A stretch of 64,000 nucleotides of DNA from a virus (lineage: Duplodnaviria; Heunggongvirae; Uroviricota; Caudoviricetes), in IMG/VR virus record IMGVR_UViG_3300031998_000001, positions 45,064 to 109,063 of that record, one strand, 5' to 3'. Under the pieces are notes generated by a model, which did not search any database, was not told where the DNA came from, and worked only from the letters and a program-made list of their open reading frames with translations. The position numbers were made by a program, and so were the translations under genes. Positions 10,807 to 60,305 of this stretch are shown piece after piece. Position 1 is the first letter of the stretch, and the number at the start of each line of letters is the position of its first letter.

Positions 10807-11349
10807 TTATGATTTGCGTACAAATTCGTATCCGTTTTCCTTGTCCAGCCCTCCTTCGAGGAATGTGCTCCTGACAAACCCCACATAGTGCTTGTATATG
10901 CACCGCCTCGTGAACTGGGACTTTATTCCGTTGAAGTCCCTGACGAAATCGGAGAAGTCGCAGTCGTCCGTGTAGCGTATCGAGAAGCAACTCGTATCAA
11001 GGGGGTAGAACGGGCTTTCCGTGTCGAGCCAGCCCTCCGCGATGACCTTGAGGTTGTACGGTCTGGAACACATCCTGACCACTTCCTCGTCCGTTGCGTC
11101 CAGAGTTATGAACCTGCCGTCCACGAAAAGTTGGTAGTCCTTGTGCTCGTTGAGGTCGAATACGGCTTCCTTCGTGAGTTGTATCCTCCGTATCGTGCCG
11201 ATGTTGTCATCTGGCTCGGACTCCCGCACGAAGATTGTCGTGTCGTCGGAGAGCATATAGTTGCCTCGATTACCGAACCTCATCGAGTCCTCGTTCCATC
11301 TGGTATATGCCTCGTTCAGCATTTCATTGTATCTTTTGATGTGTACCAT
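10807..11349 (-). CDS. CTS-like tagged putative internal head protein
   Basis: N-terminus MVHIKRYNEMLNE. Confidence 0.7.
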   Translation of the reverse strand: MVHIKRYNEMLNEAYTRWNEDSMRFGNRGNYMLSDDTTIFVRESEPDDNIGTIRRIQLTKEAVFDLNEHKDYQLFVDGRFITLDATDEEVVRMCSRPYNLKVIAEGWLDTESPFYPLDTSCFSIRYTDDCDFSDFVRDFNGIKSQFTRRCIYKHYVGFVRSTFLEGGLDKENGYEFVRKS

Positions 11350-11376
11350 AGTGCTATAAATTGTCAATATATTATA

Positions 11377-11874
11377 TTAGAGGGCACAGGACAACTTGCG
11401 TACCACTTCCGCCCCGAATATCTTTCCTATCGTTATGAACATCATATCGTCCATAATGCGTCTTGGTTCGCTGTCATTCGGAAAGTTCCACCCGCCATTA
11501 CAGAAAGCCTCCACGAAACTCCTGTAATAGACCTCGAACTGCCTCATATCGTCGGAGAACTGCGAGAGGTAGCGGGCAATCTCATATCTTGCTTCCGTGT
11601 GGTAGTTTTCCGATGTCATATTGGCGAGCCATACGAGCAGGTCTTCATTGATGCTAATCCTTACTTTCCGATGCAGGGATTTCCCTACATTTTCAAGCCC
11701 GCCAGTTGCGTCCTTCGTACCGCCGTGATAGTTGGCGAGCCTGCGCTCGATGTTTTCCTTGTACCTGTTCCAAGAACTGTCCCCGCGCTCGATTGCTATT
11801 TCGGGGTATTCTTGGCTGAAATAACCAGCAAGGTCGGTGCGTTCGCTTTCGTCAATCCTCCTGATGTGTATCAT
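11377..11874 (-). CDS. CTS-like tagged putative internal head protein
   Basis: N-terminus MIHIRRIDESE; TATAAATA on minus strand at 11900..11907. Confidence 0.7.
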   Translation of the reverse strand: MIHIRRIDESERTDLAGYFSQEYPEIAIERGDSSWNRYKENIERRLANYHGGTKDATGGLENVGKSLHRKVRISINEDLLVWLANMTSENYHTEARYEIARYLSQFSDDMRQFEVYYRSFVEAFCNGGWNFPNDSEPRRIMDDMMFITIGKIFGAEVVRKLSCAL

Positions 11875-11909
11875 AATGTCCTGTGTTCCTATTATGAATT
11901 ATTTATATC

Positions 11910-12176
11910 TTATAATGTCGCGGGGTCTGGAAGCCCCTTGAGCGCATTGTGTATCTCCGAATATATGTAGTGGTATCTTCGGAAGCCTCTGTCCTCGCTT
12001 CCCTGATACAATATGTAGCAGTGGTCGTCAACGACTATATGGGCTATCCCTCCCGCGTTGTCTCGGAGCGATACTACGGAAGTCCATTCGATGCCGTCCG
12101 CGTCGGTGAACCTTATCCCGCGACCGTATTCCTTGTAACCGCCGTCTGTGTATTCCTTGTATTTCTTTATTTTCAT
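11910..12176 (-). CDS. CTS-like tagged small protein
   Basis: N-terminus MKIKKYKEYTD; TATAAATA on minus strand at 12207..12214. Confidence 0.6.
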   Translation of the reverse strand: MKIKKYKEYTDGGYKEYGRGIRFTDADGIEWTSVVSLRDNAGGIAHIVVDDHCYILYQGSEDRGFRRYHYIYSEIHNALKGLPDPATL

Positions 12177-12198
12177 ACAGTTACAGATTGTCAATATG

Positions 12199-12573
12199 TT
12201 ATGAATTATTTATATCCTTGCTCATCTCTGGCGAAAACCTCTCCGCGAGGAACTTCCTCGACTCTTCTGTCAGGAACGACAGCAGGTATGCGAACGGCTC
12301 GTCGTTGTCGGTGTCGTGCTTCGCCCCTATGCAGTTCCAGATGTTGTTCGCCCCGTGGTAGCACTCGTGCATTATAGTGCCGAACTCGAAGTCGCTGTTG
12401 TAGTGTATGAGCAACTTGTGGTCGCAATAGACCGTAAGCCCGTCGCTTGACGAGTATTCCTCTATCGTCTTCTTCCAGTCTCCGTCGTGGAATATGCTCT
12501 CATATTCCTCTTCCGTTGTGCAGTATCCGAGCCAGATGCTCACGGGGTACAGCGTGTCAATCTTCTTAATCAT
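12199..12573 (-). CDS. Putative HExxH zinc metallopeptidase-like protein
   Basis: TIMHECYH…EPFAYL; TATAAATA on minus strand at 12605..12612. Confidence 0.6.
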   Translation of the reverse strand: MIKKIDTLYPVSIWLGYCTTEEEYESIFHDGDWKKTIEEYSSSDGLTVYCDHKLLIHYNSDFEFGTIMHECYHGANNIWNCIGAKHDTDNDEPFAYLLSFLTEESRKFLAERFSPEMSKDINNS

Positions 12574-12618
12574 CGCCTTTCGGTTTTAGGGTTGGTGTAC
12601 GGGTTATTTATAGGGGTG

Positions 12619-17456: not shown

Positions 17457-17951
17457 TTATAGTATCGGTATTCGGCTGTCCTCCGTCACGAACTTGTACT
17501 CCCAGCCCCTCTGCTTGCAGAACATCTCGCACGCCCTTGCCTTCTCGGTGTTGCGCACGAAGGTCTCCGCCTCATACTTGAAGCGTTTCAGGGACTTCTC
17601 CGTGACGCGCTTCGGCTGTTCGGGCTTCGTCAGGTACTTCTTCGGCTTGACTTCGAGGACATAGTGCTTGGTGTTCCCCTCGCCGTCCGTCCTCTCGAAG
17701 TAGAAGTCTGGGAAATACTCGTGGTACTTCTGGTCGAGGGAACTGAAATACTTTACCGATATGCACTCGCTCCCCCACCTCTTCACCTCTGGGGAGAGGT
17801 CGAGCAACTTGCATACGCGGAGTTCCCACGAACTCCTGTATATTATCGGGTAGCCCCCGCAGTATTTCTCCCTGTTGACTGGGGCGTAGTAGCCCTGACT
17901 GTATTTGAGCGACTCGCTCTGCGAGTGCGGTTTGAGTGCCTTTATGTCCAT
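17457..17951 (-). CDS. Head completion nuclease (T4 gp4-like, TnsA-type endonuclease)
   Basis: IIYRSSWE…WGSE…YFPDF…LEVKPKK…WEYKFVTE; TATAAATA at 17978..17985 (-); start MDIKALK. Confidence 0.88.
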   Translation of the reverse strand: MDIKALKPHSQSESLKYSQGYYAPVNREKYCGGYPIIYRSSWELRVCKLLDLSPEVKRWGSECISVKYFSSLDQKYHEYFPDFYFERTDGEGNTKHYVLEVKPKKYLTKPEQPKRVTEKSLKRFKYEAETFVRNTEKARACEMFCKQRGWEYKFVTEDSRIPIL

Positions 17952-18050
17952 AAGTCCCTGTCCTTTGCTGTACTCTATATTTATAATTCGGCTTCCGCCG
18001 TCGGTTTCCCGACATTTATAAATAATGTATATATAGTATCTTATAGCCGA

Positions 18051-18551
18051 ATGAACTTTTCCGCGCATACATACGAAGTGATACTCGACCTCGCAGACAG
18101 GTTCGGGAAGTTCGGCTTCGATATGACGGATGTGCGCATAGCCTATGTGCGCCCAGACGGTATGTCGAACTTCCGTTCATTCACAGACCGAGAGGCACTT
18201 GCCGAATACTTCGGGGACACCGTTTCGACTGGTGCTTTCACGAAGGAGAACGGCGGGTACTGGAAACTCTGCGACTGCACCCTTACCCGCACGCTTCGGT
18301 TTCTCCCGCGCATATCGTTTCGGGTGACCGATGCCTGCGGGAAAAGGAGGAGGATTTCGGAACGCTCCGTAGTTCGTCCGACCGCCACCGTTACGAGGGA
18401 GGCTGATGCGAGCCGTGTTCTCGGAGTGGTCGAGCGCACGCTCGACAGGTATTGCGCGATAGTCGGGGAGGCGGAGAGGCGCACAGCCGAAGGTGTTTTC
18501 GGAGACCTGTGCTTCGGCGACTGGTACTGGAAGGAAATCCATAGATTATGA
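18051..18551 (+). CDS. Hypothetical late protein
   Basis: Start MNFSAHTY, after TATAAATA at 18017..18024; divergent from gp4-like gene. Confidence 0.65.
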   Translation: MNFSAHTYEVILDLADRFGKFGFDMTDVRIAYVRPDGMSNFRSFTDREALAEYFGDTVSTGAFTKENGGYWKLCDCTLTRTLRFLPRISFRVTDACGKRRRISERSVVRPTATVTREADASRVLGVVERTLDRYCAIVGEAERRTAEGVFGDLCFGDWYWKEIHRL

Positions 18552-31308: not shown

Positions 31309-31656
31309 ATGGTAAGTAGATACGGTGAATTTAGGGATAGCGGGTGCTTTGTTTCAGAGCCGTGCTATATTTCCCAAGTTGTCGAGAACAAGGCGCACGC
31401 CATACTTGTCTATTATGACAGGTACGAAACCGCGATGGCTTTCGGGTATGACGATATATCCGAACTTGCATCCGAGTGGAGCAAGAAAGCCCCAGAGATA
31501 ACCACGAATCGTGGCACAAGGCTGTCGTTTGAAGAAATGTACGGGCGTGAACTGGAGGACATTGATGCCCTTATGACTGGTGAGTCGTATTCGTTCCTGC
31601 CTCCTGCTGCGAACGGTCTGCCAAGGAAAAGAATAATCGTTCTTAAAATCAAATGA
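31309..31656 (+). CDS. CTS-like tagged protein
   Basis: N-terminus MVSRYGEFRD. Confidence 0.6.
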   Translation: MVSRYGEFRDSGCFVSEPCYISQVVENKAHAILVYYDRYETAMAFGYDDISELASEWSKKAPEITTNRGTRLSFEEMYGRELEDIDALMTGESYSFLPPAANGLPRKRIIVLKIK

Positions 31657-31684: not shown

Positions 31685-32296
31685 ATGGTACACATTAAAC
31701 GGTTGGACGAAATGATGACACCGAATGTAACTGGTGGTGTAGCAAATATTGATGAGATTGTCAGGAAATATAATCTCAAATACAATGAAGATACAGGTCG
31801 CTATGATTGTAACGGTAATGTAGATGTCGTTAGTGCAAAGGATGATTTGGTTGCAAATGGAAGATTTGTCATTCCGTTTGGTGTCGTTAGCGGAAATTTC
31901 TATTGCCAGCACATTCGTCTTGAATCCCTTAATGGTGCGCCAACGGAAGTCGGCGGTACTTTCTACTGCCAGTATAATAGGTTCAGTACGCTCGAAGGCG
32001 CACCAAGTAAGGTTGGTAGAGATTTTATCTGTGCATATAATTATTATCTTACATCAATCAAGGGTGCGCCAGCGGAAGTCGGCGGAGATTTTTTTTGTAG
32101 CCATTGCAAAATAGAATCGCTCGAAGGCGCACCGAGAAAAGTCGGTGGTGATTTTGAATGTTGCGATAATCATTTGACATCGCTCGAAGGCGCACCGCAG
32201 GAAGTGGGCGGTGAATTTGATTGTAGGGGTAATAAACTTATTTCCCTTGATGGTGCACCCGAAAAGGTTGGTAGTATGCTTTCTGATTTTGATTAA
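31685..32296 (+). CDS. CTS-like tagged 21-aa LRR-like repeat protein
   Basis: MVHIKRLDEM tag; 5-6 repeats LxSLEGAPxxVGGxFxCxxN. Confidence 0.85.
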   Translation: MVHIKRLDEMMTPNVTGGVANIDEIVRKYNLKYNEDTGRYDCNGNVDVVSAKDDLVANGRFVIPFGVVSGNFYCQHIRLESLNGAPTEVGGTFYCQYNRFSTLEGAPSKVGRDFICAYNYYLTSIKGAPAEVGGDFFCSHCKIESLEGAPRKVGGDFECCDNHLTSLEGAPQEVGGEFDCRGNKLISLDGAPEKVGSMLSDFD

Positions 32297-32663: not shown

Positions 32664-33281
32664 ATGGTAAAGAAATTCAGTGAGTTTATAGCCGAGTCGT
32701 CGCTTCCAGACTATGAGGCGTTGCCTTACAATCCGAAAGGCACGGGCGAGGACTTCTACAAATATGTGTACGGGCTTTTCCCGAAGGAGTGGAGGACGCT
32801 GGAGGAAACGGAGGTCGGCACGATATGGGTGCATAGCGACATAACATCGCCCATAACGAAGAAGGTCATTGTTGATGCCAGCGAGGGCAATGTCTATCAT
32901 TATTTCAGGAAGGCGAGCGACGGCACTTGGGATGAGTTCGAGAAGCGCGATATGTCGCGCGACAGCAACGAGCCAGTGGAGCACGGTGTCGTTGTCACCA
33001 ACAATGACATTATGGACGCAAGCGGCAGGTATCTCGGCTTGTACGCGCCAGCATACGACAGGAACGGAAACCTCGTATGCTACCCCACGACAGGGAAGGA
33101 CAGGAGCGGCTTGTATGTTATGAAGGGCATACGCCCGATATTGTTTTCCGAACTTTGGAACGACTGTGGCGAGGAACTTCGCGCCGAGTCAAACGGCAGG
33201 CGGGGTACAGTGTGCCTTTACGATGGGCACGGGCACAAGTGGGTTGCACGCGACTGTGACGAGTTAAGGAGGTTCATATAA
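32664..33281 (+). CDS. CTS-like tagged protein
   Basis: MVKKFSEFIAE, the closest match to T4 MKTYQEFIAE. Confidence 0.75.
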   Translation: MVKKFSEFIAESSLPDYEALPYNPKGTGEDFYKYVYGLFPKEWRTLEETEVGTIWVHSDITSPITKKVIVDASEGNVYHYFRKASDGTWDEFEKRDMSRDSNEPVEHGVVVTNNDIMDASGRYLGLYAPAYDRNGNLVCYPTTGKDRSGLYVMKGIRPILFSELWNDCGEELRAESNGRRGTVCLYDGHGHKWVARDCDELRRFI

Positions 33282-33300: not shown

Positions 33301-33750
33301 ATGATAAAGAGATTTGAAGACTTTGAAAATATAGATGATGTTACCGCTGGTGCAAAGGTCGTAACCCGCGAAGGGGAACTTAAGGACATACTTCCCGTTC
33401 TCGCTGGATGCCTTGACGAGATATCAAGGTTGTCTGGGTGGTTCGGCTCACCAGAGATGGTTGCGAAGTGCAAGGTTGATGGCGATACTGCATATTATGA
33501 AATGGAGTCGAAGACCCAATGGGCTAATGACGGTTATCTTTTGCTATATATGATGCCACAGACATTTACTCCGTACCTGCTGTTCGGTTTCTCGGAGAAT
33601 GATGTCGATTTGCATCATTTGAAAATCAGCGACCTGTCGTTCAGCATCAAGGATGTCGAACACAAGTTTGCGGTCACGAGCAGGATAAGGAGGATTGACC
33701 CGACGGATGGTGTCAATAGGTTGATTGCGAAGGTTCGGGTGCATAATTAA
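33301..33750 (+). CDS. CTS-like tagged protein, paralog of 33903..34400
   Basis: MIKRFEDFE; CKVDGDTAYYE vs CKVENGIAYYE. Confidence 0.7.
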   Translation: MIKRFEDFENIDDVTAGAKVVTREGELKDILPVLAGCLDEISRLSGWFGSPEMVAKCKVDGDTAYYEMESKTQWANDGYLLLYMMPQTFTPYLLFGFSENDVDLHHLKISDLSFSIKDVEHKFAVTSRIRRIDPTDGVNRLIAKVRVHN

Positions 33751-33902: not shown

Positions 33903-34400
33903 ATGGTTAAGAGATACAGCGAATTTATAACGGAAGGAAGGAGCGAATACATAATGTCGAGGCTCGCGCTCGGATTTGCCCTTGAAGTGAAGCGCAAGTC
34001 GGAGGACGGAAGTTTCGCCCGCGACTGCAAGGTCGAGAACGGCATAGCGTACTATGAGTACGACAGCATATATGAGCCAGACGCAATGACAAGGCACAAC
34101 GGGGATTTTGTCCTTATGGTTCTTCCAGACAACCAGAACCCCCAGTTCCTTGCTGGGTATGTGTCTCACGATATGCCCGTTGACAAGATAAGTTTCAGGA
34201 ATGTGAACGCGCTCGACCTCAATGACGGTGAACTCGCAGACCTCCGAAGCCGAGTGAGCGTCAATATGGCTGGCAACGGTGTGAGGATGCTTATCATAAA
34301 GGCTCGCATAGACGACGACAAGAGGACGGAAACACCTCCGATAAGGATTACTCCGACAAGGGCTTCTGGTCTTGCGCTACATAAACTTCCAGAATGGTAG
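33903..34400 (+). CDS. CTS-like tagged protein
   Basis: MVKRYSEFITE. Confidence 0.75.
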   Translation: MVKRYSEFITEGRSEYIMSRLALGFALEVKRKSEDGSFARDCKVENGIAYYEYDSIYEPDAMTRHNGDFVLMVLPDNQNPQFLAGYVSHDMPVDKISFRNVNALDLNDGELADLRSRVSVNMAGNGVRMLIIKARIDDDKRTETPPIRITPTRASGLALHKLPEW

Positions 34401-34466: not shown

Positions 34467-35147
34467 ATGATACACATCAAGAGATTAAATGAGATGGCTT
34501 CCCAGCAGGAAAGCCTCGATTTTCCAGAATATGCAAGGGAGAATGTCGCGTTCCGTATGGACAAGGCGATGTCGGGGTACTACAGGCTTCTTATGTATAG
34601 CCCCGAAGCGGAGAAGCGTCACTATGGCGGGCAGAGCGTATTCCTTTCGGACGACCCCGCAGCGGAGGATATGTTCGACTATGACATCGCAAGGGAGCAG
34701 TTCGAGGAATATCTCTCGGAGAAATTTGATGACCGCACCCTCAATGTGATAAACCGCGCAGTCGGAGAGTTCAACTACCAACTTTCGGACACACCGAAGG
34801 ATATGGGCGAGTACGACATAGAGGAACTCGTGTGCGAGTGCGAGAACTTGATTTTCGACAAGGTTGCTTCTGATGGTGAATATGATTATTGTGAACTTCA
34901 CTACTCTGGGCATAACCAGTATTACAACTACTATGACGGTGACTTTACGAAGAACTGCTCTGGGGAAATCTGGCATTATGACAGGCGCGGGGATTTTTAT
35001 GGCGAGAACAGCAACGGGGAAATCGACTTCGACCACCCGTTGAAGGGCTATGAACTCGAACGCGGACGCTCATACGCATTCATATACGACAGGGTTATAA
35101 ATTCCGATGCGAAGGTTGTCGGGCTTTATGACTTCTACAAGGAATAG
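34467..35147 (+). CDS. CTS-like tagged acidic protein
   Basis: MIHIKRLNEM. Confidence 0.75.
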   Translation: MIHIKRLNEMASQQESLDFPEYARENVAFRMDKAMSGYYRLLMYSPEAEKRHYGGQSVFLSDDPAAEDMFDYDIAREQFEEYLSEKFDDRTLNVINRAVGEFNYQLSDTPKDMGEYDIEELVCECENLIFDKVASDGEYDYCELHYSGHNQYYNYYDGDFTKNCSGEIWHYDRRGDFYGENSNGEIDFDHPLKGYELERGRSYAFIYDRVINSDAKVVGLYDFYKE

Positions 35148-35150: not shown

Positions 35151-35402
35151 ATGCCAGTAAAGACCTTTGACGAATACACGGCAAGCGGTAAGGTCAATGA
35201 TGCTCCGTTTGTCGGTGCTTACTTCCGCGTTGACATAGTAGAGGTTGCGGGCAAGGAGACCGTTAGGATTGGGGAGATAGTCCAGATATTGCATTGCACC
35301 GATATTGACGGAGAGCCTGACGAGAACATTTGCGCTGGCACGGACTACAATGAGTTGCCTATAACGATTATGGGCGTGCTGTATGATATAAGGAAGAAAT
35401 AG
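35151..35402 (+). CDS. CTS-like tagged small protein
   Basis: MPVKTFDEYTAS. Confidence 0.7.
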   Translation: MPVKTFDEYTASGKVNDAPFVGAYFRVDIVEVAGKETVRIGEIVQILHCTDIDGEPDENICAGTDYNELPITIMGVLYDIRKK

Positions 35403-35420: not shown

Positions 35421-35885
35421 ATGGCTATGATACACATTAAGAGATTGAACGAGATGATGAACCAGAACGATGAGGTTCGGTTCGCAAACCCAGAGAACCA
35501 GATGCGCTTTGAGCGTTTTAAGGAGATTTGTGAGGAAGACGGGTGGAAACTCTATATCACTAATCAGAGAGGTGAAGCGTGCATAGATGTTTCCAAGTAT
35601 TCGGATGCTGGTCAGGACTTCACATTTACCATTTGTACAAAACCGGAAGACAGGAGTGACATATATTTCCACTCGCTTGTTGACGACTATGCCGAAGGAT
35701 ACGATGTCGATGACGAGGCTAAAATCTGGTGCGAGGGCACTGGCGAGTTTGATGACGACGGCAACGAGATACTTGTTGGCAAGAACGGTGCGCCCCACGA
35801 CTACGAGGATGTGGTTGCCGATATGCAGAATTGCCTCGACAATATGAAGAGCCTTGCCTTCAACTTGAAGAAGGAGAATATATAG
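35421..35885 (+). CDS. CTS-like tagged protein
   Basis: (MA)MIHIKRLNEM; body SKYSDAGQDF…GKNGAP. Confidence 0.75.
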   Translation: MAMIHIKRLNEMMNQNDEVRFANPENQMRFERFKEICEEDGWKLYITNQRGEACIDVSKYSDAGQDFTFTICTKPEDRSDIYFHSLVDDYAEGYDVDDEAKIWCEGTGEFDDDGNEILVGKNGAPHDYEDVVADMQNCLDNMKSLAFNLKKENI

Positions 35886-35894: not shown

Positions 35895-36476
35895 ATGCCA
35901 GTAAAGACTTTTGACGAATACACCGCAAGCCCGAAGGGGAAGAACGGGCGCATAGTGCTGTACCACGGCACGAAGTCCGCGTTCGACCGTTTCGACAGGC
36001 AGTTCGTGAACAGCGGCTGGGGAGAGCAGGCGTACGGCTACGGCTTCTACTTTACGGACGACTATGAGTGTGCGAGCCAGTACAGCCGCAACGGGAGCGT
36101 CATCCGCGTTTCCGTCCCTTCGGGGAAGTACCTTTCGTACAAGGGTATTTCCCGCGCGGAGGCAATGGCAGTCGCCCGCAAGTTCTTCAGGTATTACACG
36201 GAGGTCGATGACTACGGCAGGGAGGCGTATCCCGATGCCGAGTCGAGGCGCGAGTTCTGGGACGGTGAGTGCAAGTACCTCGCCGACTGCGAGGACGGAG
36301 GTGACATATACGGCACTGTCGCCTCTATGATGGGAAGCGACGAGGAGACGAGTTCGTTCCTCCGTTCGCTCGGCTATGTCGGGATAAAGTTCCCGGCAGA
36401 TGACGGAAGCACCGGGCGGGAGTTTACCAACTATGTGATATTCGATGAAAAGGACATTGAGATAATAAAAAAGTAA
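35895..36476 (+). CDS. CTS-like tagged ADP-ribosyltransferase-fold protein (ART-PolyVal-like)
   Basis: LYHGT…GYGFYFT…ASQY…GYVGI…NYVIFD; tag MPVKTFDEYTAS. Confidence 0.75.
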   Translation: MPVKTFDEYTASPKGKNGRIVLYHGTKSAFDRFDRQFVNSGWGEQAYGYGFYFTDDYECASQYSRNGSVIRVSVPSGKYLSYKGISRAEAMAVARKFFRYYTEVDDYGREAYPDAESRREFWDGECKYLADCEDGGDIYGTVASMMGSDEETSSFLRSLGYVGIKFPADDGSTGREFTNYVIFDEKDIEIIKK

Positions 36477-36480: not shown

Positions 36481-36843
36481 ATGGTACACATAAAGAGACT
36501 TAACGAAATGTTCGGGAATATTCGGAAGTATCTGAGTGATGATTCCGACTGGTTCTTTGGTGGCGAGGAAGGCGCAAACCGTTGGATGGATGCAGAAATG
36601 CGCAGAAAAAAGAATGCACGCTTGTTTGACTTGAACTGGAATGTACTTAAAGGCGTAACCGATGATGATATGGCGGTTATGTGCGGTTCGGACATTTCCG
36701 CTGCACGCTGGAAGGTAGCCAAGTGCATACGGCTCGGTATCGCTTTCGAGGACTTGCTTGCCGATGTGCGCTTTTGCAGGGGGTTGAATAAAAAGGAGGC
36801 TCTTGCCGTTGAAAGCAGGTTGAGAGATATGTTTGAAGAATAG
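36481..36843 (+). CDS. CTS-like tagged protein
   Basis: MVHIKRLNEM. Confidence 0.7.
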   Translation: MVHIKRLNEMFGNIRKYLSDDSDWFFGGEEGANRWMDAEMRRKKNARLFDLNWNVLKGVTDDDMAVMCGSDISAARWKVAKCIRLGIAFEDLLADVRFCRGLNKKEALAVESRLRDMFEE

Positions 36844-36867: not shown

Positions 36868-37548
36868 ATGGCGCATATACTAAATTTCAATGATTTTATC
36901 GCGGAGTACCGCAGTGTCGGCGGAAACAGCGGATATGTCGGCTACTCGATGAGCGTCCGCGCGGCGGAAGCGAGGCGGGACGGGAAGTTTCCCAAGACCG
37001 ACTTCAAGCGCGAGTACGGGATGAGCGACAAGGTTCTGTCCGAACTTGTTTCGTTCGGCTACATCGACAACAGCGAATGGCATCATACGTCGAAGTTCGG
37101 GAATCGCACTACATTCTATTCTTTCTTGGACGAGCCGTACAGGGACTGCTGGCTGGAGCACTCGGACGAGATAAAGGCGTTAATCAGGAAAGGCGACGAC
37201 GAAGCCATCGTCGCGCTGTTTGACAATTATCGGGACGAAGCCCTCGCGGAGCACGAACGACGGATGAAAAAAATAGAGGACGAAAACGAGGAATATATGC
37301 GCTACAAGGACGAGTACCGCAAGGCGCACGACAAGTTTGACGACAGCGTTCCGTTCGTGGCTTCCAACGGATATACGGTCAAGGGCTATGAAACGGTCTA
37401 TAACCAAGACGGTGAGATTTGCACCAAGCGTCATTGCCGCAGCGGGCGCGACCTTGCCCGCTCGGAATACCTGAAAGCGAAGAACAAATGGACGGAGGGG
37501 CTGTTGACACCACAGGAGTATTTCGCACGGAAGGAGAAAAATGTTTAG
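36868..37548 (+). CDS. CTS-like tagged protein
   Basis: MAHILNFNDFIAE; body GYVGYSMSVRA…EWHHTSKF. Confidence 0.75.
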   Translation: MAHILNFNDFIAEYRSVGGNSGYVGYSMSVRAAEARRDGKFPKTDFKREYGMSDKVLSELVSFGYIDNSEWHHTSKFGNRTTFYSFLDEPYRDCWLEHSDEIKALIRKGDDEAIVALFDNYRDEALAEHERRMKKIEDENEEYMRYKDEYRKAHDKFDDSVPFVASNGYTVKGYETVYNQDGEICTKRHCRSGRDLARSEYLKAKNKWTEGLLTPQEYFARKEKNV

Positions 37549-37556: not shown

Positions 37557-38183
37557 ATGATACACATTAAGAGAATAGACGAGATGGCAGGCGGCAAGCA
37601 GTACACCTGCATAGTCGAGAGCGACACGAAGGACATCGACAGGCTCTGGGCTGTCGCGGTATGCACGGAGAACGAGAGCGAATACAATGGACTCGCACAG
37701 TTGTCATACGACACGAGGGGCGAAATGTCGTTCGAGTTTAAGGGCGAGTGGGCTTCTGGCAGGGAGGAGATTGAGTGCTACGGTAAAACGCTCGACTACA
37801 AGAAGTTCAGGCGTATGTTCAATGACGACCTCAAAGGCTCGAAACGGCTTCACAGGTACACTATGAAGAACCCCGTCGGGGATATGTACGAGCACCACAT
37901 TTACGGGGACAGGGACAAGGGGGATGTAATCGAACTTTCCGACAGACCAGTCCTCGACGGGATAACCCGCCCGTATGTGCAGAGCGAGTGGGAGAGCGCG
38001 TGCGATAGGGAGATACGGGTTTTCGAGAGGAAGTTCGGGACTGAACTCTATCGGCTCGGTCGCGGTGGCAGGCACTTGTGCGTGGAGAACACCCGCGAAA
38101 ACCGCGTGCGTTTCTTGGAGATGCTCGAAGAACTTGACAGGGCACTGGACAGGACGCTCGAAGCATACAACAGAATGAAGTGA
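37557..38183 (+). CDS. CTS-like tagged protein
   Basis: True start MIHIKRIDEM at 37557 inside track ORF 37419..38183. Confidence 0.75.
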   Translation: MIHIKRIDEMAGGKQYTCIVESDTKDIDRLWAVAVCTENESEYNGLAQLSYDTRGEMSFEFKGEWASGREEIECYGKTLDYKKFRRMFNDDLKGSKRLHRYTMKNPVGDMYEHHIYGDRDKGDVIELSDRPVLDGITRPYVQSEWESACDREIRVFERKFGTELYRLGRGGRHLCVENTRENRVRFLEMLEELDRALDRTLEAYNRMK

Positions 38184-38217
38184 TATAAATAATAGGAATA
38201 ATATAAACTTTGATGCT

Positions 38218-39162
38218 ATGGCGCATATATTGAAATTTGAAGATTTCTGCAAGTCCCGCTTCAACGAAAGCAGGGAGTATGACCGTCCGACGAGAAGGTC
38301 GTACCGCAGGCTGTACGAGAGTGAGAACGCCGACGCTGTGTTTGCAAAGCACAAGGGTGATGAACTCACCAAGACCGATGCGGAGGACGCATACAAGATT
38401 GCGGTCGAGATGCTCGGAAAGGAAAACGCGAAGAGCATATACGGAACGGAGGATGAATTTGCCGAAAGGTATGACGCTGCGCAGGAAAGCGCGGAAAAGA
38501 ACGGCAAGTACAAGAGGGGTGCTATGCCAGTCATAAACAACTCCAACTTCAAGGGCTTCAGCGGTGGCAAGGACGACAAGGACAGCGCACCGAGAAAGGA
38601 AGAACTTGAAAAGGTGCTTGACGAGAAGGATGTTGACAAGAAGATTAAGGACGCTGTGTTGAGCAATCAGGTGGTTGCCTTCAAGTTCCTTGTGGGAAAC
38701 GGCTTCATTGACATCAGTGGCGAGGACAAGGACATTGCGAAGAAAACCCAGCAGGACTTGTTCAAGGACGATGCTCTTGCGCAGGAATGGCTTTCGAGCG
38801 GTGGGGGACTGAAGGACACGAAGGATGTCGTCAAGGGCGACTACGAGTACATTTCGGTAGAAGACCTCAAGCCTATACAGGAGCAGATATTCGTGGCGAA
38901 GGCTTTGAAGATGTCGGCGGGCGCGGAAGGCGACAAGGGGAAGTTGAACTGGTTGCTCAAGGCTGACGAGAAGAGTCCGCTCGTAATCGTAAGTTCGGAC
39001 AACTACATACTCGACGGACACCACAGGTGGCTGGGCGCATATCTGGTTGACCCAGACGCGAAGATGAGGTGCGTGAAGATTGATATGGACTGCAAGGACT
39101 TGCTCGCCCTTACCAACAAGTTCACGGGCGCAATCGGAAACAAGCCGAATGTAACCGCATAA
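38218..39162 (+). CDS. CTS-like tagged protein with C-terminal ParB/Srx-like domain
   Basis: MAHILKFEDF…RFNE; LKPIQEQI…PLVIVSSDNYILDGHHRW; TATAAATA at 38184..38191. Confidence 0.8.
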   Translation: MAHILKFEDFCKSRFNESREYDRPTRRSYRRLYESENADAVFAKHKGDELTKTDAEDAYKIAVEMLGKENAKSIYGTEDEFAERYDAAQESAEKNGKYKRGAMPVINNSNFKGFSGGKDDKDSAPRKEELEKVLDEKDVDKKIKDAVLSNQVVAFKFLVGNGFIDISGEDKDIAKKTQQDLFKDDALAQEWLSSGGGLKDTKDVVKGDYEYISVEDLKPIQEQIFVAKALKMSAGAEGDKGKLNWLLKADEKSPLVIVSSDNYILDGHHRWLGAYLVDPDAKMRCVKIDMDCKDLLALTNKFTGAIGNKPNVTA

Positions 39163-39532: not shown

Positions 39533-39892
39533 ATGTTTATGAATGATAAAAAGCAACATCTGAAGACATACATTGACATAAAGAATGACGAGTTGAAGGA
39601 AGCCGAACTTCTTGAACGGTTCATAGAACTCTATTCGTCGGAGGTCAATTCCAACGAACTCCGCTCGGCTTTGCAGTCGGTTGACTTGCAGAAGATGATA
39701 AGTGAGTCGCAGGAGACGGACGAGGGCTTGCTCGGCGGTGTCGCTGGGTTTGTCGGAGGTCTTGCCTTCGGCACCAAACTCGGTGACGCTATCTGCCGTG
39801 CGCTCGGAATAACGAAGGGGCTTCTCTACGACCTGTTCCACTCGAAACTGTTTACGACTGCGGTCTGCACGATACTTGGGGTGAAGATGTAG
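39533..39892 (+). CDS. Hypothetical protein with Gly-rich hydrophobic segment
   Basis: GLLGGVAGFVGGLAFG; N-terminus MNDKKQ shared with topoisomerase gp52-like gene. Confidence 0.65.
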   Translation: MFMNDKKQHLKTYIDIKNDELKEAELLERFIELYSSEVNSNELRSALQSVDLQKMISESQETDEGLLGGVAGFVGGLAFGTKLGDAICRALGITKGLLYDLFHSKLFTTAVCTILGVKM

Positions 39893-39907: not shown

Positions 39908-40477
39908 ATGGTACACATTAAGAGGATAGATGAGATGTACGGCTACGGATTGCTGTTTGACAATATGCCTTCCGCCGATACGGACGAATGCAGACCTGTT
40001 GGTTGCGACTCCGCGAAAATAAAGGCGATACTCCAGCAGGACGCGGCGAAAAGGATAATCAGGAAATATGACGCGAATATCGGTTATGGTAGCGGAAATA
40101 TTACGCTTGCGATTTTCTTTGAGGGAAATCGGAATGAAGACGCATCGCTCTACTGGAAAAACAAGGAGTCGGCGGAGAAAAAAATCCAGAACCTGATTCA
40201 CGAACTTGATGTCGAGACCGAACTCTATTTCGAGGTTGCTTACAGCGGTAATGTCGGCTGGGATGCCGACAAGAATGTGTACGATGCGGGCGGTATCTGG
40301 GACTATGATAGAATGATTGACGAGTCGAAGTACCCGTTCGAGATGTTCTATGGTCTGAAGGGTGCGATAACGGCTTTTGCGAACGCGCACGGCAAGGACA
40401 ACACGATGTGCGTGTGCTTCAGTTGGAACAGGTATAAATACCAGTTAAAGGGCTACGCCAGTTCAACGAAATCTTGA
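39908..40477 (+). CDS. CTS-like tagged protein
   Basis: MVHIKRIDEM. Confidence 0.75.
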   Translation: MVHIKRIDEMYGYGLLFDNMPSADTDECRPVGCDSAKIKAILQQDAAKRIIRKYDANIGYGSGNITLAIFFEGNRNEDASLYWKNKESAEKKIQNLIHELDVETELYFEVAYSGNVGWDADKNVYDAGGIWDYDRMIDESKYPFEMFYGLKGAITAFANAHGKDNTMCVCFSWNRYKYQLKGYASSTKS

Positions 40478-44761: not shown

Positions 44762-45178
44762 ATGGCAACACATATTAAGAGATTGAATGAGATGCAGAAT
44801 CTGACAGAGGACGAACTTGACGCTCTCCGCAGGCTTGCTGGCATAATTTCGGACGCATTCGGCGGACGATGCACGAGTTCGGTGAACCGTGCGGAACATA
44901 CGGTGACATACGACTTCGGTTCGGTCGCTGGGAACTTCGACGACCTTCGCGACAGGTTTATGGAGAGCGTTTCTATGTGCCTGTCCGAAATGGAGAGCAT
45001 AGGGCTGTCGGTTGACACGGAGGACTTGTGGGAGTGCGTCGCAGTCTATGCGAATGACGGAGATGGAGGCTTCATCTGCTCGGTCGAGATAGTTCCCGAA
45101 AGGGACGGAAGCAACCGCTTTGCAAGGCGCGTGGTCGTTTCTATGGAGTATAACGAAAGTCTTGGCTTCGATGAATAG
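44762..45178 (+). CDS. CTS-like tagged protein
   Basis: MATHIKRLNEM. Confidence 0.7.
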   Translation: MATHIKRLNEMQNLTEDELDALRRLAGIISDAFGGRCTSSVNRAEHTVTYDFGSVAGNFDDLRDRFMESVSMCLSEMESIGLSVDTEDLWECVAVYANDGDGGFICSVEIVPERDGSNRFARRVVVSMEYNESLGFDE

Positions 45179-45623: not shown

Positions 45624-45634
45624 GTTATATATAA
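45615..45634 (+). promoter_or_regulatory. T4-type late promoter, extended form, encoded by the last codons of the YopX gene
   Basis: TAT AAA TAA (Y-K-stop) followed by GTTATATATAA. Confidence 0.7.
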
Positions 45635-45649
45635 TATGATTTGAACATT

Positions 45650-46600
45650 ATGGCATATATTAAGAAACTCGATAATTTTGTGAACGAAGGGAGAATGACC
45701 GAAAGCCGTGTCAACGAGGCGTTGCGCAGGGGCAACAACGATGACTACCGCTTCTATGTGGTTTCGCAGAATGAAGCGGACAAACTCGCTGGTGAATACG
45801 GAAGCGTTGAAGCCATACCGAACGATGTCTTCATAAGGGAGGCGGAGGCGGAAGGCACTGTTTACAGCATAGACGGCTTCGCTGACGCATACAACAATAT
45901 GGACTTGCCGACTGTCGGCTACAGCGTCCTGCGCATACTTCCGAAGATTGTTTACTCGAAGGTTTCTGAAAGCCGTAGTTCCCGTGGCGGAAAGATGCTG
46001 AACGAGGGGTATTCGGTGAATTTCCTTCGGAAACTCGTCCACAGGATTGTCAACTCAAAGACGAACAATGAGTATTTTAATTTCTACGGCAAGAAGATTG
46101 AACTCCAGTCTGGAACAGAAAATTATGTCGATGTGTGCATAGATGATAATATTCATTTTTCGATAGACTATGACACAAATGAGGTTAACTTCGAGTCGAT
46201 AGGAGAAGAGGATGAGAAGTTTGTCGAGGATATTTCCGATGCGCTCCACAAGGAACTTGATGGCAGATTCGGCAAGGTGCAGATTTCATTTAATGATAAT
46301 ATATCATACGAAGATGATACCCCATCGCAATGGTATTATTTAAGCAATGACGACAAGAGGGTTCTTCGTACAATGACATCGAATCCAGAAGACATAAAAG
46401 AGATTGCTGAACTTACCGACAATGAAAAGATAGAGTTCAGGGACAACAAGGGTATTCTAATAAGTGCAGATGATGCGTTTGAGCGTCTTGGTCAGGAACA
46501 GTTCCTTTCTGGGCTTCTCCGTGCGACATATCATTGGAGTTGTGCGCGTGGTGAAGGACAAAACGAGGTTACTTTCAGATTAAAAAGAAAAGGAGAATAA
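45650..46600 (+). CDS. CTS-like tagged multi-domain acidic protein
   Basis: MAYIKKLDNFVNE; internal linker ESRSSRGGKMLNE. Confidence 0.75.
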   Translation: MAYIKKLDNFVNEGRMTESRVNEALRRGNNDDYRFYVVSQNEADKLAGEYGSVEAIPNDVFIREAEAEGTVYSIDGFADAYNNMDLPTVGYSVLRILPKIVYSKVSESRSSRGGKMLNEGYSVNFLRKLVHRIVNSKTNNEYFNFYGKKIELQSGTENYVDVCIDDNIHFSIDYDTNEVNFESIGEEDEKFVEDISDALHKELDGRFGKVQISFNDNISYEDDTPSQWYYLSNDDKRVLRTMTSNPEDIKEIAELTDNEKIEFRDNKGILISADDAFERLGQEQFLSGLLRATYHWSCARGEGQNEVTFRLKRKGE

Positions 46601-46625: not shown

Positions 46626-47409
46626 ATGGTACACATCAGAAGAATTGACGAAAAAAATATCCAATGGCAATGCCAACTACGGAAGCAAGAACATCTTTTT
46701 TGCCGTAGTCATCGGCTATGACAAGAACGGAAACAAAGTTTCCTGCAACAAAGATTCAAGGAATACCGTAGTGAAGTTCCAAGCAATACCGTTGAAAGTC
46801 AGTACGAATACCAATCTTGCGACCGAACTTGGGGTATATGATACTGCACAATATTGCGAGACATACAAGAGCGCGGTTGAAATTGCGGATTACTGGAATA
46901 AATCCTATAAGAGCAACGGGACATACTTCGATGACTTTGGCGGAAATATCGGTGAAAGCCGTAGTTTTCGTGGTAGGAGGATGCTGAACGAGAGCAAACT
47001 CCTTGACGCTATCAGGAAGTATGACAGCGATAAGTTGGACAGCATAGAAGCACTCGTGCATAGCGAGTATTCATTAACGCTTGATGGACTTATTGCATTG
47101 TATAGACATTTTTATAGAACCGACATAGACTTCTTCACCGAGTTCTTGGAATATACTGGCGACAGGCGCAACGAGTGGTTGAAAGACGAGTATGAATGGT
47201 GGGATTTCATCAAGACTTATGTTGCATACAAACTCTTGGATGATATAAGCGTCAACGAGATTGTTCAGGCGGTCATAGACGAGGAATATGTGAATTACAT
47301 AAGCGACCCAGATGACATATTTGAAGAGTTTAACCGTAACGAAATCGGCAAATGGGCTGAAGGTATCTGTGCGGAACTCGGAATACAAGCACCCGATATG
47401 GAAGATTAG
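46626..47409 (+). CDS. CTS-like tagged protein, frameshifted at an A7 run (46651..46657)
   Basis: ATG 46626 gives MVHIRRIDE in a different frame from the 254-aa ORF; removing one A fuses them (…IDEKISNG…). Confidence 0.7.
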
Positions 47410-52433: not shown

Positions 52434-53153
52434 CTATTCCATATATTTGCTCAACTCGTCCTTCGCCCTTGCGGTTGACGGTCTGGTGTAGTTGAGTATC
52501 GTCACCCCGTTGCGAGACGCGAACTCGAATATGTCCCTGTCGATGCCGTCCCAGAAGTTCTCATTCCCTCCGAACTCCGAGACGCAGTATGCGTAGTGCA
52601 TTGCGTATCCGAGATAATTCGTGTCCCCGCCCCGAATGCGTGCAACCCACTCGTCATAGTCGCCCGACATCTTCGAGAGGATTTCGTCCCTTGAACCGTG
52701 CCCTCTCCTTATTGCTTTCTCCACATCCCTGCGGTGCTCCTCCATAACTTCGAGAACCTTGCCAACGAACTCCCCGCTTCCCTTCGTGTCGATGTCCGCG
52801 TAGAGCCTGTCGTTCCCAGTGGCGTAACTTCTCGGTGCTTCTATGCGGTCGAACGAGAGCCTGAATGTGTCCCCGAACACCTCCGAGTAGTACCTTTGCA
52901 TCTGCTTCGTGTAGAACTTCCCGACAGCCTTCTTGTACTCGTCCCAGTTGGTCTTCCATTCGTGGCGGTACTGCGGCTCGTGCCCGAAGCGCGTTTCGTA
53001 TTCGTTGGCATCGAGCAGGTCGTCATACCTGTATTCGCTCCATTCGGTCTTGTGGAAGCCCTTGAACGAGGGTATCACTATGCTTCCCCTGTCGAGCATA
53101 CCGACATTCACGCTTTCGTTCATTTCCGTAAAGTCCTTAAATTTGAGTATCAT
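52434..53153 (-). CDS. CTS-like tagged protein
   Basis: MILKFKDFTEMNE; TATAAATA on minus strand at 53181..53188. Confidence 0.75.
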   Translation of the reverse strand: MILKFKDFTEMNESVNVGMLDRGSIVIPSFKGFHKTEWSEYRYDDLLDANEYETRFGHEPQYRHEWKTNWDEYKKAVGKFYTKQMQRYYSEVFGDTFRLSFDRIEAPRSYATGNDRLYADIDTKGSGEFVGKVLEVMEEHRRDVEKAIRRGHGSRDEILSKMSGDYDEWVARIRGGDTNYLGYAMHYAYCVSEFGGNENFWDGIDRDIFEFASRNGVTILNYTRPSTARAKDELSKYME

Positions 53154-57510: not shown

Positions 57511-57512
57511 TT

Positions 57513-58622: not shown

Positions 58623-58634
58623 ATATAAGATTTT

Positions 58635-59063
58635 ATGATAAGCGAGAAGATAAGGGAACTTGAAGAACGGCGGAGCAGGCTCGAAGAGGAGCACAGCGCG
58701 GTGCTGGAGGAGATAGCGAAACTGAAGTACAGCCGAAAGGACGAACTCCTTGAAGAACTCAAGGAAAAGTTCGTGGGCAAATGGGCTGTCATCGACGAGG
58801 GGGACAGCGGTATCGAGATTATGTTGATAAACTCAATCACCCCGTTTTCTGGCAGTGACACGGAGAATTTCATATTGGGCGGATATGATGTCTATATGTC
58901 CCGAACCCGCAACTACTATATGTGCGGTGAGGAGAGGAACACATACACCGTTTCCGACCTGAACGAGATGCGACTGCCGTCAGCCGATGAGGTGGGTATG
59001 ATTATCGGGAAATGCAGGGACGGCTTCAACAGGTTTATTGACAGTGCTGAAAAAATCGGATAG
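58635..59063 (+). CDS. Hypothetical protein
   Basis: 142-aa ORF with N-terminal coiled coil. Confidence 0.65.
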   Translation: MISEKIRELEERRSRLEEEHSAVLEEIAKLKYSRKDELLEELKEKFVGKWAVIDEGDSGIEIMLINSITPFSGSDTENFILGGYDVYMSRTRNYYMCGEERNTYTVSDLNEMRLPSADEVGMIIGKCRDGFNRFIDSAEKIG

Positions 59064-59066
59064 GCT

Positions 59067-59789
59067 ATGGAAAGTATAAGCGACATTTTGAGGAATGTTC
59101 CGTGCGGTGCGGACATCGGGCTTTATTCGCCTATGTTCGGCGAGTGCAAGTTCGTGCGCATAATGGAGGGCTGTGATGAAATAGTTGTGCTGCACGGGGA
59201 GAAGTTCGGGACGCAAGATGAATTTTTCTCCGACGGGAAGTATTACAGGACGGGCGAGTGCCTTTTGTTTCCAAGCAAGGGGCACAGGAGTTGGGAAAAT
59301 TGGCAGGACATTCTTTTCCCGCAGACCGCTGCTGCGGTGGTCAAGGACAAGTTAGGCGGGCTTTATTCGATAGTTGCAAGGGACGGAGGCGTGTCGGTGC
59401 TTGACAGTGCTGGTCATACGGTCAGGAGCGACGCGATATATGATATGACATATGCGACCGTCGATGAGGCGGAGGTGTTCTACCGCAAGGTTGCCCTCAA
59501 CTGCGGGGTGGAGAAGGAAGACTTGCAAAGCATCAACTGCAAGCCGTTCACATATTCGGACTTCAAGCCGTTTGACAGGGTGGTGTGCAGGCGGAAATGC
59601 GATGCCAGCCGAACATACGACAGCGATGTGTGGCGCATTGACTTCTTCGGCAAGTATTACGGAGGCTGGTCAGTGCCTTACCAGTGTATGACGGACAACT
59701 ACGACCAGTGCGTGCCGTACAACGAGGAGACGGAGAAACTCATAGGCACTCGCGATGACTATGCTGGTCGCTACAAGACTTGGAGATAG
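59067..59789 (+). CDS. Hypothetical protein of a Bacteroidales-phage-like family
   Basis: LYSPMFGEC…GECLLFPSK and KPFDRVVCR…CVPYNEETEKLIGT. Confidence 0.7.
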   Translation: MESISDILRNVPCGADIGLYSPMFGECKFVRIMEGCDEIVVLHGEKFGTQDEFFSDGKYYRTGECLLFPSKGHRSWENWQDILFPQTAAAVVKDKLGGLYSIVARDGGVSVLDSAGHTVRSDAIYDMTYATVDEAEVFYRKVALNCGVEKEDLQSINCKPFTYSDFKPFDRVVCRRKCDASRTYDSDVWRIDFFGKYYGGWSVPYQCMTDNYDQCVPYNEETEKLIGTRDDYAGRYKTWR

Positions 59790-59796
59790 CAAAAAG

Positions 59797-59825
59797 AAAA
59801 ACTCGGAGCGATGTCCGAGTTTTTT
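59797..59825. terminator. Bidirectional intrinsic terminator
   Basis: AAAAACTCGGA-GCGATG-TCCGAGTTTTTT between convergent genes. Confidence 0.85.
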
Positions 59826-59846
59826 ATGTCCTGATGTGATGCCGAA

Positions 59847-60305
59847 CTAATAGAGGAGGGGCTTGACGGACTTGAACTCGAATGTCCCCGCAGCCTTTTC
59901 GCACCTTTCCTTCAGTTCCTTTATGTCCGATTTCTCGTATGCGTATATGAAAAGGTCTTTGCCCAGAATGACATTTCCGAACTTGTGCATATTGGCTTGT
60001 ATCCTGTCATAGTCGTTAGGTTCTATGTCCTGTTTGTCCCAGTCATATATCGCAAGCCAGAACTCACGGCTTGCCGTTGTGTTGGTAAAGTCTTCCATTT
60101 CTCTTTTGAGCCTGAATGTGAACTTGTACCTCGGCATATTCTCGAAGTCGTCCTCATCGTGCCACAGCCTTAAACTCACATCCTTTCCGTTCGGAAAGGA
60201 TATTCCAGCGAGAGGGGTGTTCCTGATATATTCCCCTGCGGAATTTTTAAGTGTGTCATACCCTCTCATTTCGGTTATAAATTCATTATATCTCAATACG
60301 CCCAT
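59847..60305 (-). CDS. CTS-like tagged protein
   Basis: MGVLRYNEFITE; TATAAATA on minus strand at 60328..60335. Confidence 0.75.
   Translation of the reverse strand: MGVLRYNEFITEMRGYDTLKNSAGEYIRNTPLAGISFPNGKDVSLRLWHDEDDFENMPRYKFTFRLKREMEDFTNTTASREFWLAIYDWDKQDIEPNDYDRIQANMHKFGNVILGKDLFIYAYEKSDIKELKERCEKAAGTFEFKSVKPLLY

Follow-up and report, generated by a model that had tools for sequence, protein, structure and literature searches.

We analyzed a 64,000-nucleotide stretch of virus DNA (hereafter, the window; bases 45,064–109,063 of the IMG/VR contig IMGVR_UViG_3300031998_000001, 387,654 bp), in which otherwise unrelated genes open with the same short peptide tag. Approximately 60 genes of this contig carry the tag at their N-termini. 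We consider it rather probable that this opening acts as a T4-type capsid-targeting propeptide, which has been expanded to approximately 60 genes, and the sequence suggests that the phage probably packs an unusually large protein cargo together with its DNA. The bearer is an uncultured, T4-like rumen phage with a GC content of 49%, and the contig is estimated to be 93% complete. Positions without another label are those of the window, positions with the prefix G000:C1 are those of the whole contig, and genome-wide counts are based on 519 called genes.

The phage encodes gp20-, gp21-, gp23-, gp2-, and gp4-like head genes. A search of cultured phages at the DNA level did not reveal a relative of this genome. 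The nearest records by capsid protein are LR756500, a 462-kb metagenomic phage (40% identity), and the Lak megaphages of Prevotella (30%), followed further out by Tenacibaculum phage PTm1 (29%) and phage PAU (27%).

Occurrence and consensus of the tag

A previous sequence-only reading listed 22 tagged starts in the window. All 22 are ATG codons, and each opens an open reading frame (ORF) with the peptide that had been reported. Twenty of these tags are strong (11.6–22.3 bits), one is weak (31309), and one is severed from its body by a frameshift (46626). Scores were obtained with a 7-column position-specific scoring matrix (PSSM) built from regular-expression matches, and a tag was regarded as strong when it reached at least 8 bits at residues 2–6. 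Across the genome, the regular expression matched 47 ORF starts, almost all of them no more than 13 codons from the upstream in-frame stop. The PSSM retrieved 55 of the 519 called genes, versus 0.8 expected from the rate at internal positions. After the correction of five mis-called starts, the final tally was 58 strong tags and five weak variants. The claim of a repertoire far larger than the three internal proteins (IPs) of T4 stands, and the approximately 60 genes found genome-wide exceed the 22 originally listed.

The tag is confined to N-termini. A strict core pattern was present at 23 N-termini versus one occurrence in 109,868 internal residues, and the core begins at residue 2–6 in all 58 strong tags, the consensus of which is [VIMA]-H-I-K-R-[IFLY]-[DN]-E-[MFY]. 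A minority of genes has shorter T4-like tags (MVKKFSEFIAE, MVKRYSEFITE, MIKTYREFNE, and MGVLRYNEFITE). The tagged proteins are 83–453 amino acids (aa) in length and comprise 11,698 residues in all, or 9% of the genome. When the bodies (residue 21 onward) of 47 tagged proteins were clustered with BLASTP, 44 clusters were obtained; at the sequence level, the bodies are unrelated to one another.

Tagged genes occupy 18 of 20 genome bins, and 15 of them make up an island at 31.3–40.5 kb. The highly expressed late genes for the capsid, portal, and protease carry no tag. The earlier statement that replication and early small genes lack the tag held for the recognizable T4-type genes of the window, namely, a gp46/47-like nuclease, a gp32-like single-stranded DNA-binding protein, and both topoisomerase II subunits, and it is retained to that extent.

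Likeness to the T4 capsid-targeting sequence

In T4's own record (AF158101), IPII and IPIII open with MKTYQEFIAE and IPI with MKTFKEF. The tag had been likened to this capsid-targeting sequence (CTS), and a comparison with the T4 record confirmed the same hydrophobic/acidic spacing. Tyr4, Glu6, and Phe7 of T4 align with the three best conserved columns of the tag, which hold I/F/L/Y/V in 57 of the 58 tags (98%), Glu/Asp in 57 (98%), and M/F/Y in 53 (91%), respectively. PMC9026906 assigns targeting by the T4 CTS mainly to residues 4 and 7 and processing to residues 8 and 10. Glu occupies the column matching the T4 processing site in 15 of the 58 tags, and the T4-type forms add I/V/L/F two residues earlier. 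The majority tag has [ILFY]-[DN]-E inside its core, and I-x-E at T4 positions 8–10 is found in the T4-like minority only.

The T4 CTS (Mullaney and Black, 1996; reviewed in PMC9026906 and PMC3012670) is likewise a peptide of approximately 10 residues at the extreme N-terminus of unrelated proteins. Several tags are near-identical to it in the KTY-EF core, and hydrophobic-x-Glu sites, a gp21-family protease gene, and TATAAATA promoters are common to both systems. However, approximately 60 genes bear the tag in the present genome versus three (plus Alt) in T4, and the bearers are scattered genome-wide, whereas those of T4 are found at one or two loci. Moreover, the dominant consensus is two residues longer ([VI]-H before the core) and has Met for Phe, and the system described here is known from genes alone. 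In T-even phages, polymorphic loci for internal proteins (Repoila et al., 1994, cited in PMC3012670 and PMC9026906) also hold diverse, fast-evolving proteins that share the CTS alone, and the 9-kb island with its 15 tagged genes looks like one of these loci. It differs from them in its larger scale, and single tagged genes additionally stand beside the portal, capsid, protease, gp2, and gp4 genes.

The phiKZ-like giant phages, such as SPN3US (PMC5694885, PMC7411985), resemble the present phage in that dozens of proteins are internal to the head and processing after Glu is performed by a related prohead protease. In addition, the N-terminal propeptides of SPN3US-type ejection proteins have been proposed as prohead-targeting. 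However, these propeptides are approximately 100–130 residues in length and no tag is common to unrelated proteins; the cleavage motif in SPN3US is A/S-x-E, and just eight of its head proteins are cleaved.

Openings of the form M(x)K-x-[YF]-x-EFI-x-E gave at least 120 matches in each of two scans of IMG/VR, and 92 of the 238 loci fetched had at least one plausible tagged ORF start. Since these openings are frequent in IMG/VR, this type of signal is widespread.

Protease-scaffold gene and candidate cleavage sites

The presence of a gp21-family protease is consistent with the T4-type reading put forward earlier. The gene is located outside the window (G000:C1:380818–382878, plus strand) and encodes a 686-aa product with 29% identity to T4 gp21. 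The product matches Peptidase_S77 (PF03420; 34.8 bits, above the cut-off) and the head maturation protease family phrog_207 (E=4.6e-38, residues 3–194). At residues ~268–495, it contains 14 tandem 14-residue repeats (H-S-D-Y-L-A-E-Q-L-E-K-T-x-N), each of which holds a hydrophobic-x-Glu site in Y-L-A-E, as expected for a scaffold that is cut to pieces. Judging from this sequence, the approximately 490 residues to which the head protease is fused probably form a self-cleaving repeat scaffold. The equivalent protein of PTm1 is annotated as a scaffold-protease fusion.

In tagged proteins, the first 40 residues show a 13-fold enrichment of the motif [LIVMF]NE[SAG], and hydrophobic-N-E-[SAG] falls within this span in 14 of the 58. 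Among untagged proteins, the capsid protein has the motif at residue 47, shortly before the stretch that presumably aligns with the mature N-terminus of T4 gp23, and four large untagged neighbors of the protease and capsid genes have it near their N-termini. The same capsid region has L-N-E-S in PAU and I-N-E-S in PTm1. From these sequences, we infer a putative clade-wide cleavage preference for hydrophobic-N-E followed by a small residue.

Promoter linkage and head-gene neighborhood

The sequence TATAAATA is the T4 late-promoter consensus. It has 127 copies in the genome versus approximately 15 expected, 103 of which are within 60 nucleotides (nt) upstream of a gene on the same strand and 16 inside genes; it precedes the portal and protease genes, and its distribution over the genome is that of a promoter. 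The description of many tagged genes as lying just downstream of TATAAATA was fair for the window (8 of the 22 genes). An enrichment analysis extended it to the whole genome: TATAAATA is located at most 60 nt upstream of 28 of the 58 tagged genes (48%) versus 64 of the 456 others (14%; Fisher p=1e-8), and its distance to the ATG of tagged genes is 21–30 nt in every case.

Tagged genes also neighbor head genes. Two are located directly behind the portal gene, at the position of core genes 67 and 68 in T4; others are beside the capsid gene, in the protease module, and around the gp2-like gene (four genes). In the window, three tagged genes are located downstream of the gp4-like gene, across a glycan locus.

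A two-box leader was noted upstream of tagged genes (e.g., 33865–33902, 38180–38217, and 45612–45649). It consists of TATAAATA(AGT) and a second, A/T-rich box of the form [AT]A[AT]TATA[AT], often TATATAA or TAATATAA, which is located 6–9 nt downstream of the first and ends 5–15 nt before the ATG. The leader has no Shine-Dalgarno sequence, and the genes of this genome largely lack such sequences. The second box alone precedes many tagged genes without TATAAATA. The leader could represent tandem promoters or a Bacteroidota-style initiation region.

Modularity and nature of the cargo

The Pfam domains identified in tagged proteins (ART-PolyVal, WYL_2, DUF5856, WDGH, DUF4314, and a retropepsin-like Zn_protease) start at residue 20–52. 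The ten residues after the tag are rich in Ser, Asn, Gln, Ala, Thr, and Pro and poor in aromatics. The WDGH protein has 3380 homologues at approximately 70% identity, and typical homologues start approximately 15 residues before the domain. Among the 120 best of the 3380 homologues, the tag is restricted to the six closest, and a homologue with 94% identity is untagged. The AlphaFold model of the tagged WDGH protein, built on the alignment of these homologues, has a helix at residues 3–10, a coil, and then the domain (pLDDT 85–97), with pLDDT below 50 over residues 1–16. Because the domains start after the tag, the WDGH homologues are mostly untagged, and the model has a helix-coil-domain arrangement, the tag is an add-on ahead of complete, independently occurring domains.

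Approximately 85% of the bodies match no Pfam family, and searches of Pfam and PHROGs named few families among the cargo. PHROG "tape measure" matches probably reflect only the helical-repeat protein described below. Anti-defense or host-takeover functions for many tagged proteins are a reasonable guess from a handful of domains, namely, ART-PolyVal, DUF4314, WDGH, WYL_2, and a ParB-like lead. T4 Alt is described in PMC9026906 as a packaged enzyme with cleaved termini, and the tagged ADP-ribosyltransferase parallels it. Effector-type domains, such as ART-PolyVal and DUF4314, are also found in polyvalent proteins, which occur in phages and conjugative elements (Iyer et al., 2017, cited in PMC7824862) and are thought to be delivered with incoming DNA. 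However, the domains of polyvalent proteins are strung into one giant protein, whereas separate small proteins each have their own address tag in the present phage. Some tagged proteins are more likely to be head-core or scaffold parts than effectors. One is G40404 (382 aa), an apolipoprotein-like helical protein that resembles a scaffold, and two are encoded directly behind the portal gene. The approximately 60 tagged proteins likely mix head-core or scaffold parts with ejected effectors. One further tagged protein, of 292 aa, opens with MVHIKRTNEM.

We considered whether the tag is instead a docking or processing handle for virion assembly. Most bearers would then not be ejected effectors but transient core components, scaffolds, or assembly factors, or proteins bound to another part of the particle, and cleavage would lead to their degradation or expulsion instead of delivery to the next cell. 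The helical repeats of G40404 are typical of scaffolds, the annotated scaffold of PAU bears the PAU tag, two tagged genes stand where T4 has core genes 67 and 68, and the core proteins of T4 exit the head after cleavage by gp21 (PMC5694885). However, a conserved assembly machine does not need sixty unrelated bodies with fast turnover, and 13 of the 18 tagged genes of relatives (see below) have no homologue in this genome. Furthermore, the bodies include complete enzyme- or effector-type domains (ART-PolyVal, WDGH, DUF4314, and the retropepsin-like protease). We regard a pure assembly role as unlikely.

Another explanation is that the tag serves as a recognition leader for a different phage enzyme or a host factor unrelated to the capsid, such as a modifying enzyme or a chaperone, or as a degron for timed proteolysis. 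Leaders common to the clients of one maturase are known, and the genome has one radical-SAM gene. However, this gene (G000:C1:301480–302664) encodes a generic Radical_SAM domain for which no SPASM was reported, and it has no tagged neighbor, whereas tagged genes are scattered genome-wide. A leader for a radical-SAM/SPASM maturase was rejected because the tagged genes are unlinked to the single Radical_SAM gene. The sequence of the tag, the hydrophobic-x-Glu sites, and the neighborhood all point to the head, and we consider recognition by a factor unrelated to the capsid to be quite improbable.

Selection on the peptide and turnover of the cargo

Codons inside the tag vary freely: Ile is encoded by ATA, ATT, and ATC in 16, 14, and 10 cases, His by CAC and CAT in 19 and 7, Glu by GAA and GAG in 23 and 16, and Leu by five codons. 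The exact back-translated pattern M-[VI]-H-I-K-R-x-[ND]-E-M was found in three other IMG/VR contigs, one of which is a near-identical fragment. A relative with a GC content of 45%, the capsid protein of which is 55% identical, shares approximately 10.5 kb of alignable DNA and has 12 tagged ORFs, and a relative with a GC content of 35% shares approximately 4 kb and has nine. DNA identity over the alignable parts is 67–72%. The tags of the relatives have forms such as MTHIMRIDEM, MEHIKRINEY, MNRIKRFDDFVNE, and MLVKNYNEFINE. Since synonymous codons vary freely and the tag is kept in relatives with GC contents of 35 and 45%, these sequences indicate that selection acts on the tag peptide.

Among the tagged genes of the relatives, 13 of 18 have no homologue in this genome. 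Four of those with homologues here (23–45% identity), including the homologue of the frameshifted gene at 46626, are matched by genes that are also tagged, and a fifth is matched by a gene with a degenerate tag only. The peptide is, thus, conserved while the cargo turns over.

The above findings bear on the possibility that conservation serves the nucleic acid, either as a promoter-plus-initiation cassette for translation without a Shine-Dalgarno sequence or as a recombination handle for gene shuffling. A Shine-Dalgarno-like sequence precedes only six of the 58 tagged genes versus 106 of the 456 others, tagged genes have their own A/T-rich boxes just upstream, and near-identical leader-plus-tag DNA is repeated within the 31–40 kb island. 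However, residues are fixed while synonymous positions vary, the relatives use other codons for the same peptide, and the capsid, portal, and protease genes, which are highly expressed and late, have no tag. A purely nucleic-acid function is very unlikely, and the pure DNA-cassette reading was rejected on the grounds of synonymous variation together with conservation across GC contents; a role as a shuffling cassette can coexist with a function of the peptide.

A reading of the tag as a short amphipathic helix that localizes proteins to the cell membrane or elsewhere in the cell is similarly very improbable. A helix is predicted for the tag, and Lys/Arg flank its hydrophobic residues, which are spaced at i, i+3, and i+6, but approximately eight residues with an invariant acidic residue are too short and too polar for known membrane-targeting helices, and the protease-site enrichment and head-gene neighborhood would be left unexplained.

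Similar tags in distant phages

In PAU (record JQ362498, 100.2–113.7 kb), 17 genes open with MK[TS][LI]xxL[YF]E versus none for the reversed control pattern, and 13 of the 17 are between the head-completion and capsid genes. Among the bearers are the protein annotated as the scaffold (gp152) and two others with the annotation "internal capsid protein" (gp142 and gp154), and the PAU tags are often followed by L-N-E-[AS]. PAU belongs to the same wider clade and resembles the present phage in that one opening is common to many genes, mostly in the head module. It differs in its consensus, the smaller number of genes, their tight clustering around head genes, and the tagging of the scaffold itself.

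When a looser pattern was applied to Lak-A1 (MK250016), approximately eight genes opened with M-x-x-x-I-K-x-[LF]-x-E (e.g., MNKLIKRLIE) versus one control match, and the same pattern identified one tagged gene in LR756500. Examples in Lak-A1, at 34240, 60222, 22495, 184279, and 189728, have the form MN[KT]xIKxL[ILMV]E, and an I-K-R-L-x-E core is common to them and the tag described here. In LR756500, PTm1, and Lak-A1, the PSSM did not identify any tag at a distance of up to 20 kb from the capsid gene, and the N-termini of the PTm1 head module have no common opening. We found no paper describing the PAU or Lak-A1 tag family in the searchable literature.

Proposed mechanism and points against it

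If the tag is a capsid-targeting propeptide, it would form a short N-terminal amphipathic helix followed by a flexible linker. During prohead assembly, the helix would attach the protein, which is made late, to the scaffolding core. The gp21-family protease would then remove the helix by cleavage behind Glu, for which there are three candidate sites: [LI]-[ND]-E within the tag, I-x-E immediately following the tag, and hydrophobic-N-E-[SAG] further along. The mature protein would remain beside the DNA in the head and may precede or accompany it into the next cell. Each of these steps, from docking to the core through cleavage and retention in the head to injection, is one that we infer from the observations above.

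Several points weigh against this proposal. We found no virion, proteome, or cleavage data for this phage or any relative, and the PAU "internal capsid protein" labels are depositor annotations. No documented head of the T4 type comes close to sixty cargo species. In the dominant form, HIKRLNEM, the I-x-E of T4 positions 8–10 is missing; the only conserved Glu site of this form lies within the targeting core and has Met at P1', and gp21 is not documented to cut at such a site. An exact TATAAATA is present at only half of the tagged genes. Moreover, T4 gp55, gp33, and gp45 used as BLAST/phmmer queries did not detect a homologue in the genome, and, thus, the "late" timing of tagged genes rests on analogy. 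A PSSM of the scaffold repeat ranked tagged N-termini somewhat higher (Mann-Whitney p=1e-6); however, none reached 8 bits, and the resemblance is limited to the [DE]-[YF]-[LI]-x-E element of the T4-type tag forms. With a similarity this weak, the suggestion that the tag is a copy of the scaffold repeat is a weak idea. We also list a complex prediction between the first 40 residues of the tag protein at 36481–36840 and the 686-aa protease-scaffold, the score of which (0.00) counts neither for nor against binding.

Tagged genes of the window and adjacent features

The tagged genes of the window are listed in Table 1 together with the gp4-like gene.

Table 1. Tagged genes and the gp4-like gene in the window.
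Feature	Position	Strand	Remarks
Tagged gene, 180 aa, MVHIKRYNEMLNE	10807..11349	-	21.9 bits; no Pfam family
Tagged gene, 165 aa, MIHIRRIDES; TATAAATA upstream	11377..11874	-	15.6 bits
Tagged gene, 88 aa, MKIKKYKEY; TATAAATA upstream	11910..12176	-	14.1 bits
gp4-like head completion gene	17457..18068	-	T4 gp4, 35% identity, E=3e-24; upstream of three minus-strand tagged genes
Weak tag variant, 115 aa, MVSRYGEFRDS; TATAAATA upstream	31309..31656	+	3.8 bits
Tagged gene, 203 aa, MVHIKRLDEMM	31685..32296	+	Body paralogous to tagged G42879 (453 aa)
Tagged gene, 205 aa, MVKKFSEFIAES, T4-type form with I-A-E	32664..33281	+	PSSM
Tagged gene, 149 aa, MIKRFEDFENI	33301..33750	+	PSSM
Tagged gene, 165 aa, MVKRYSEFITEG; TATAAATA upstream	33903..34400	+	PSSM
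Tagged gene, 226 aa, MIHIKRLNEMAS	34467..35147	+	22.3 bits
Tagged gene, 83 aa, MPVKTFDEYTAS	35151..35402	+	PSSM
Tagged gene, 154 aa, MAMIHIKRLNEMM; start may be 35427	35421..35885	+	PSSM, regular expression
Tagged ADP-ribosyltransferase, 193 aa, MPVKTFDEYTAS	35895..36476	+	ART-PolyVal PF18760, residues 20-104, E=3.7e-10
Tagged gene, 120 aa, MVHIKRLNEMF (consensus tag)	36481..36843	+	PSSM
Tagged gene, 226 aa, MAHILNFNDFIAE	36868..37548	+	Regular expression
Tagged gene, 208 aa, MIHIKRIDEMAG	37557..38183	+	Regular expression
Tagged gene, 314 aa, MAHILKFEDFCKS	38218..39162	+	ParB_N/ParBc_2-like, lead only; structural matches start at residue 18-30
Tagged gene, 189 aa, MVHIKRIDEMYG	39908..40477	+	Body related to tagged G224795
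Tagged gene, 138 aa, MATHIKRLNEMQ	44762..45178	+	PSSM
Tagged gene, 316 aa, MAYIKKLDNFVNE; TATAAATA upstream	45650..46600	+	Tagged homologue in relative G003, 45% identity
Frameshifted tagged gene, tag MVHIRRIDE	46626..47409	+	Tag and 254-codon body in different frames
Tagged gene, 239 aa, MILKFKDFTEMNES; TATAAATA upstream	52434..53153	-	PSSM
Tagged gene, 152 aa, MGVLRYNEFITEM; TATAAATA upstream	59847..60305	-	PSSM

In the frameshifted gene, the start at 46626 opens a 31-codon ORF, and the body (46645–47409) is in the +1 frame behind an A7 run (46649–46655). This body has a tagged homologue in relative G001. The frameshift may be an assembly error, the mark of a pseudogene, or a slippage site yielding tagged and untagged forms.

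Three further genes were noted in or next to the island. A 119-aa gene (39533–39892, plus strand) opens with MFMNDKKQHLKTYIDIKNDE, and its homologue in relative G003 (42% identical) has the clean tag MENVKTYNDMVN; the opening of the former looks like a decaying or extended tag. A TnpB/IS605-type transposase-like gene is present in two copies (40522–41772, plus strand, and G000:C1:378260–379504; 416 and 414 aa), both of which open with MMLRALKIRLYP; one copy closes the island, and the other is just upstream of the protease gene. A 109-aa ORF (39194–39523, plus strand) opens with MITMKIKYEASDEARAF and looks like a shortened copy of two 463-aa genes with MITLKLKYEASDEAKAF (G000:C1:206096–207487 and 340962–342353), one of which adjoins the capsid gene. 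These may represent another repeated mobile gene.

Implications

A system of this kind is known from T4; judged by the searchable literature, in which we found no paper on a large expansion of the CTS or on this motif, the novelty lies in its scale, dispersed layout, derived consensus, and host clade. If the tag works as in T4, one sequence rule would be enough to identify every injected or head-internal protein of this uncultured rumen megaphage and would provide approximately 60 candidate first-wave effectors, most of which have no known family. The WDGH protein would then be a case in which a captured gene was recruitable into the virion by the addition of approximately 15–20 residues, namely, the ten-residue tag and a short linker. 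The tag rule is easily testable in the cultured relative PAU.

We tentatively extend this proposal to the clade that reaches PAU and the Lak megaphages. Although we give it less than even weight, it is possible that this clade turned T4 capsid targeting into a general delivery platform, the present phage having done so the most, and that most of its approximately 60 rapidly exchanged tagged proteins, which account for 9% of its coding sequence, are pre-loaded in the head and injected as a first-wave proteome. If true, this repertoire would exceed any other known from a T4-type head, and the ten-residue tag would offer a portable means of loading proteins into Bacteroidota phages. Should the tag simply work as in T4, the list of candidate effectors would be a rich source of anti-defense and host-takeover functions for Bacteroidota, for which few are known. 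Moreover, the internal-protein system of T4 would then be an old and scalable mechanism across a deep clade rather than a curiosity of T-even phages.

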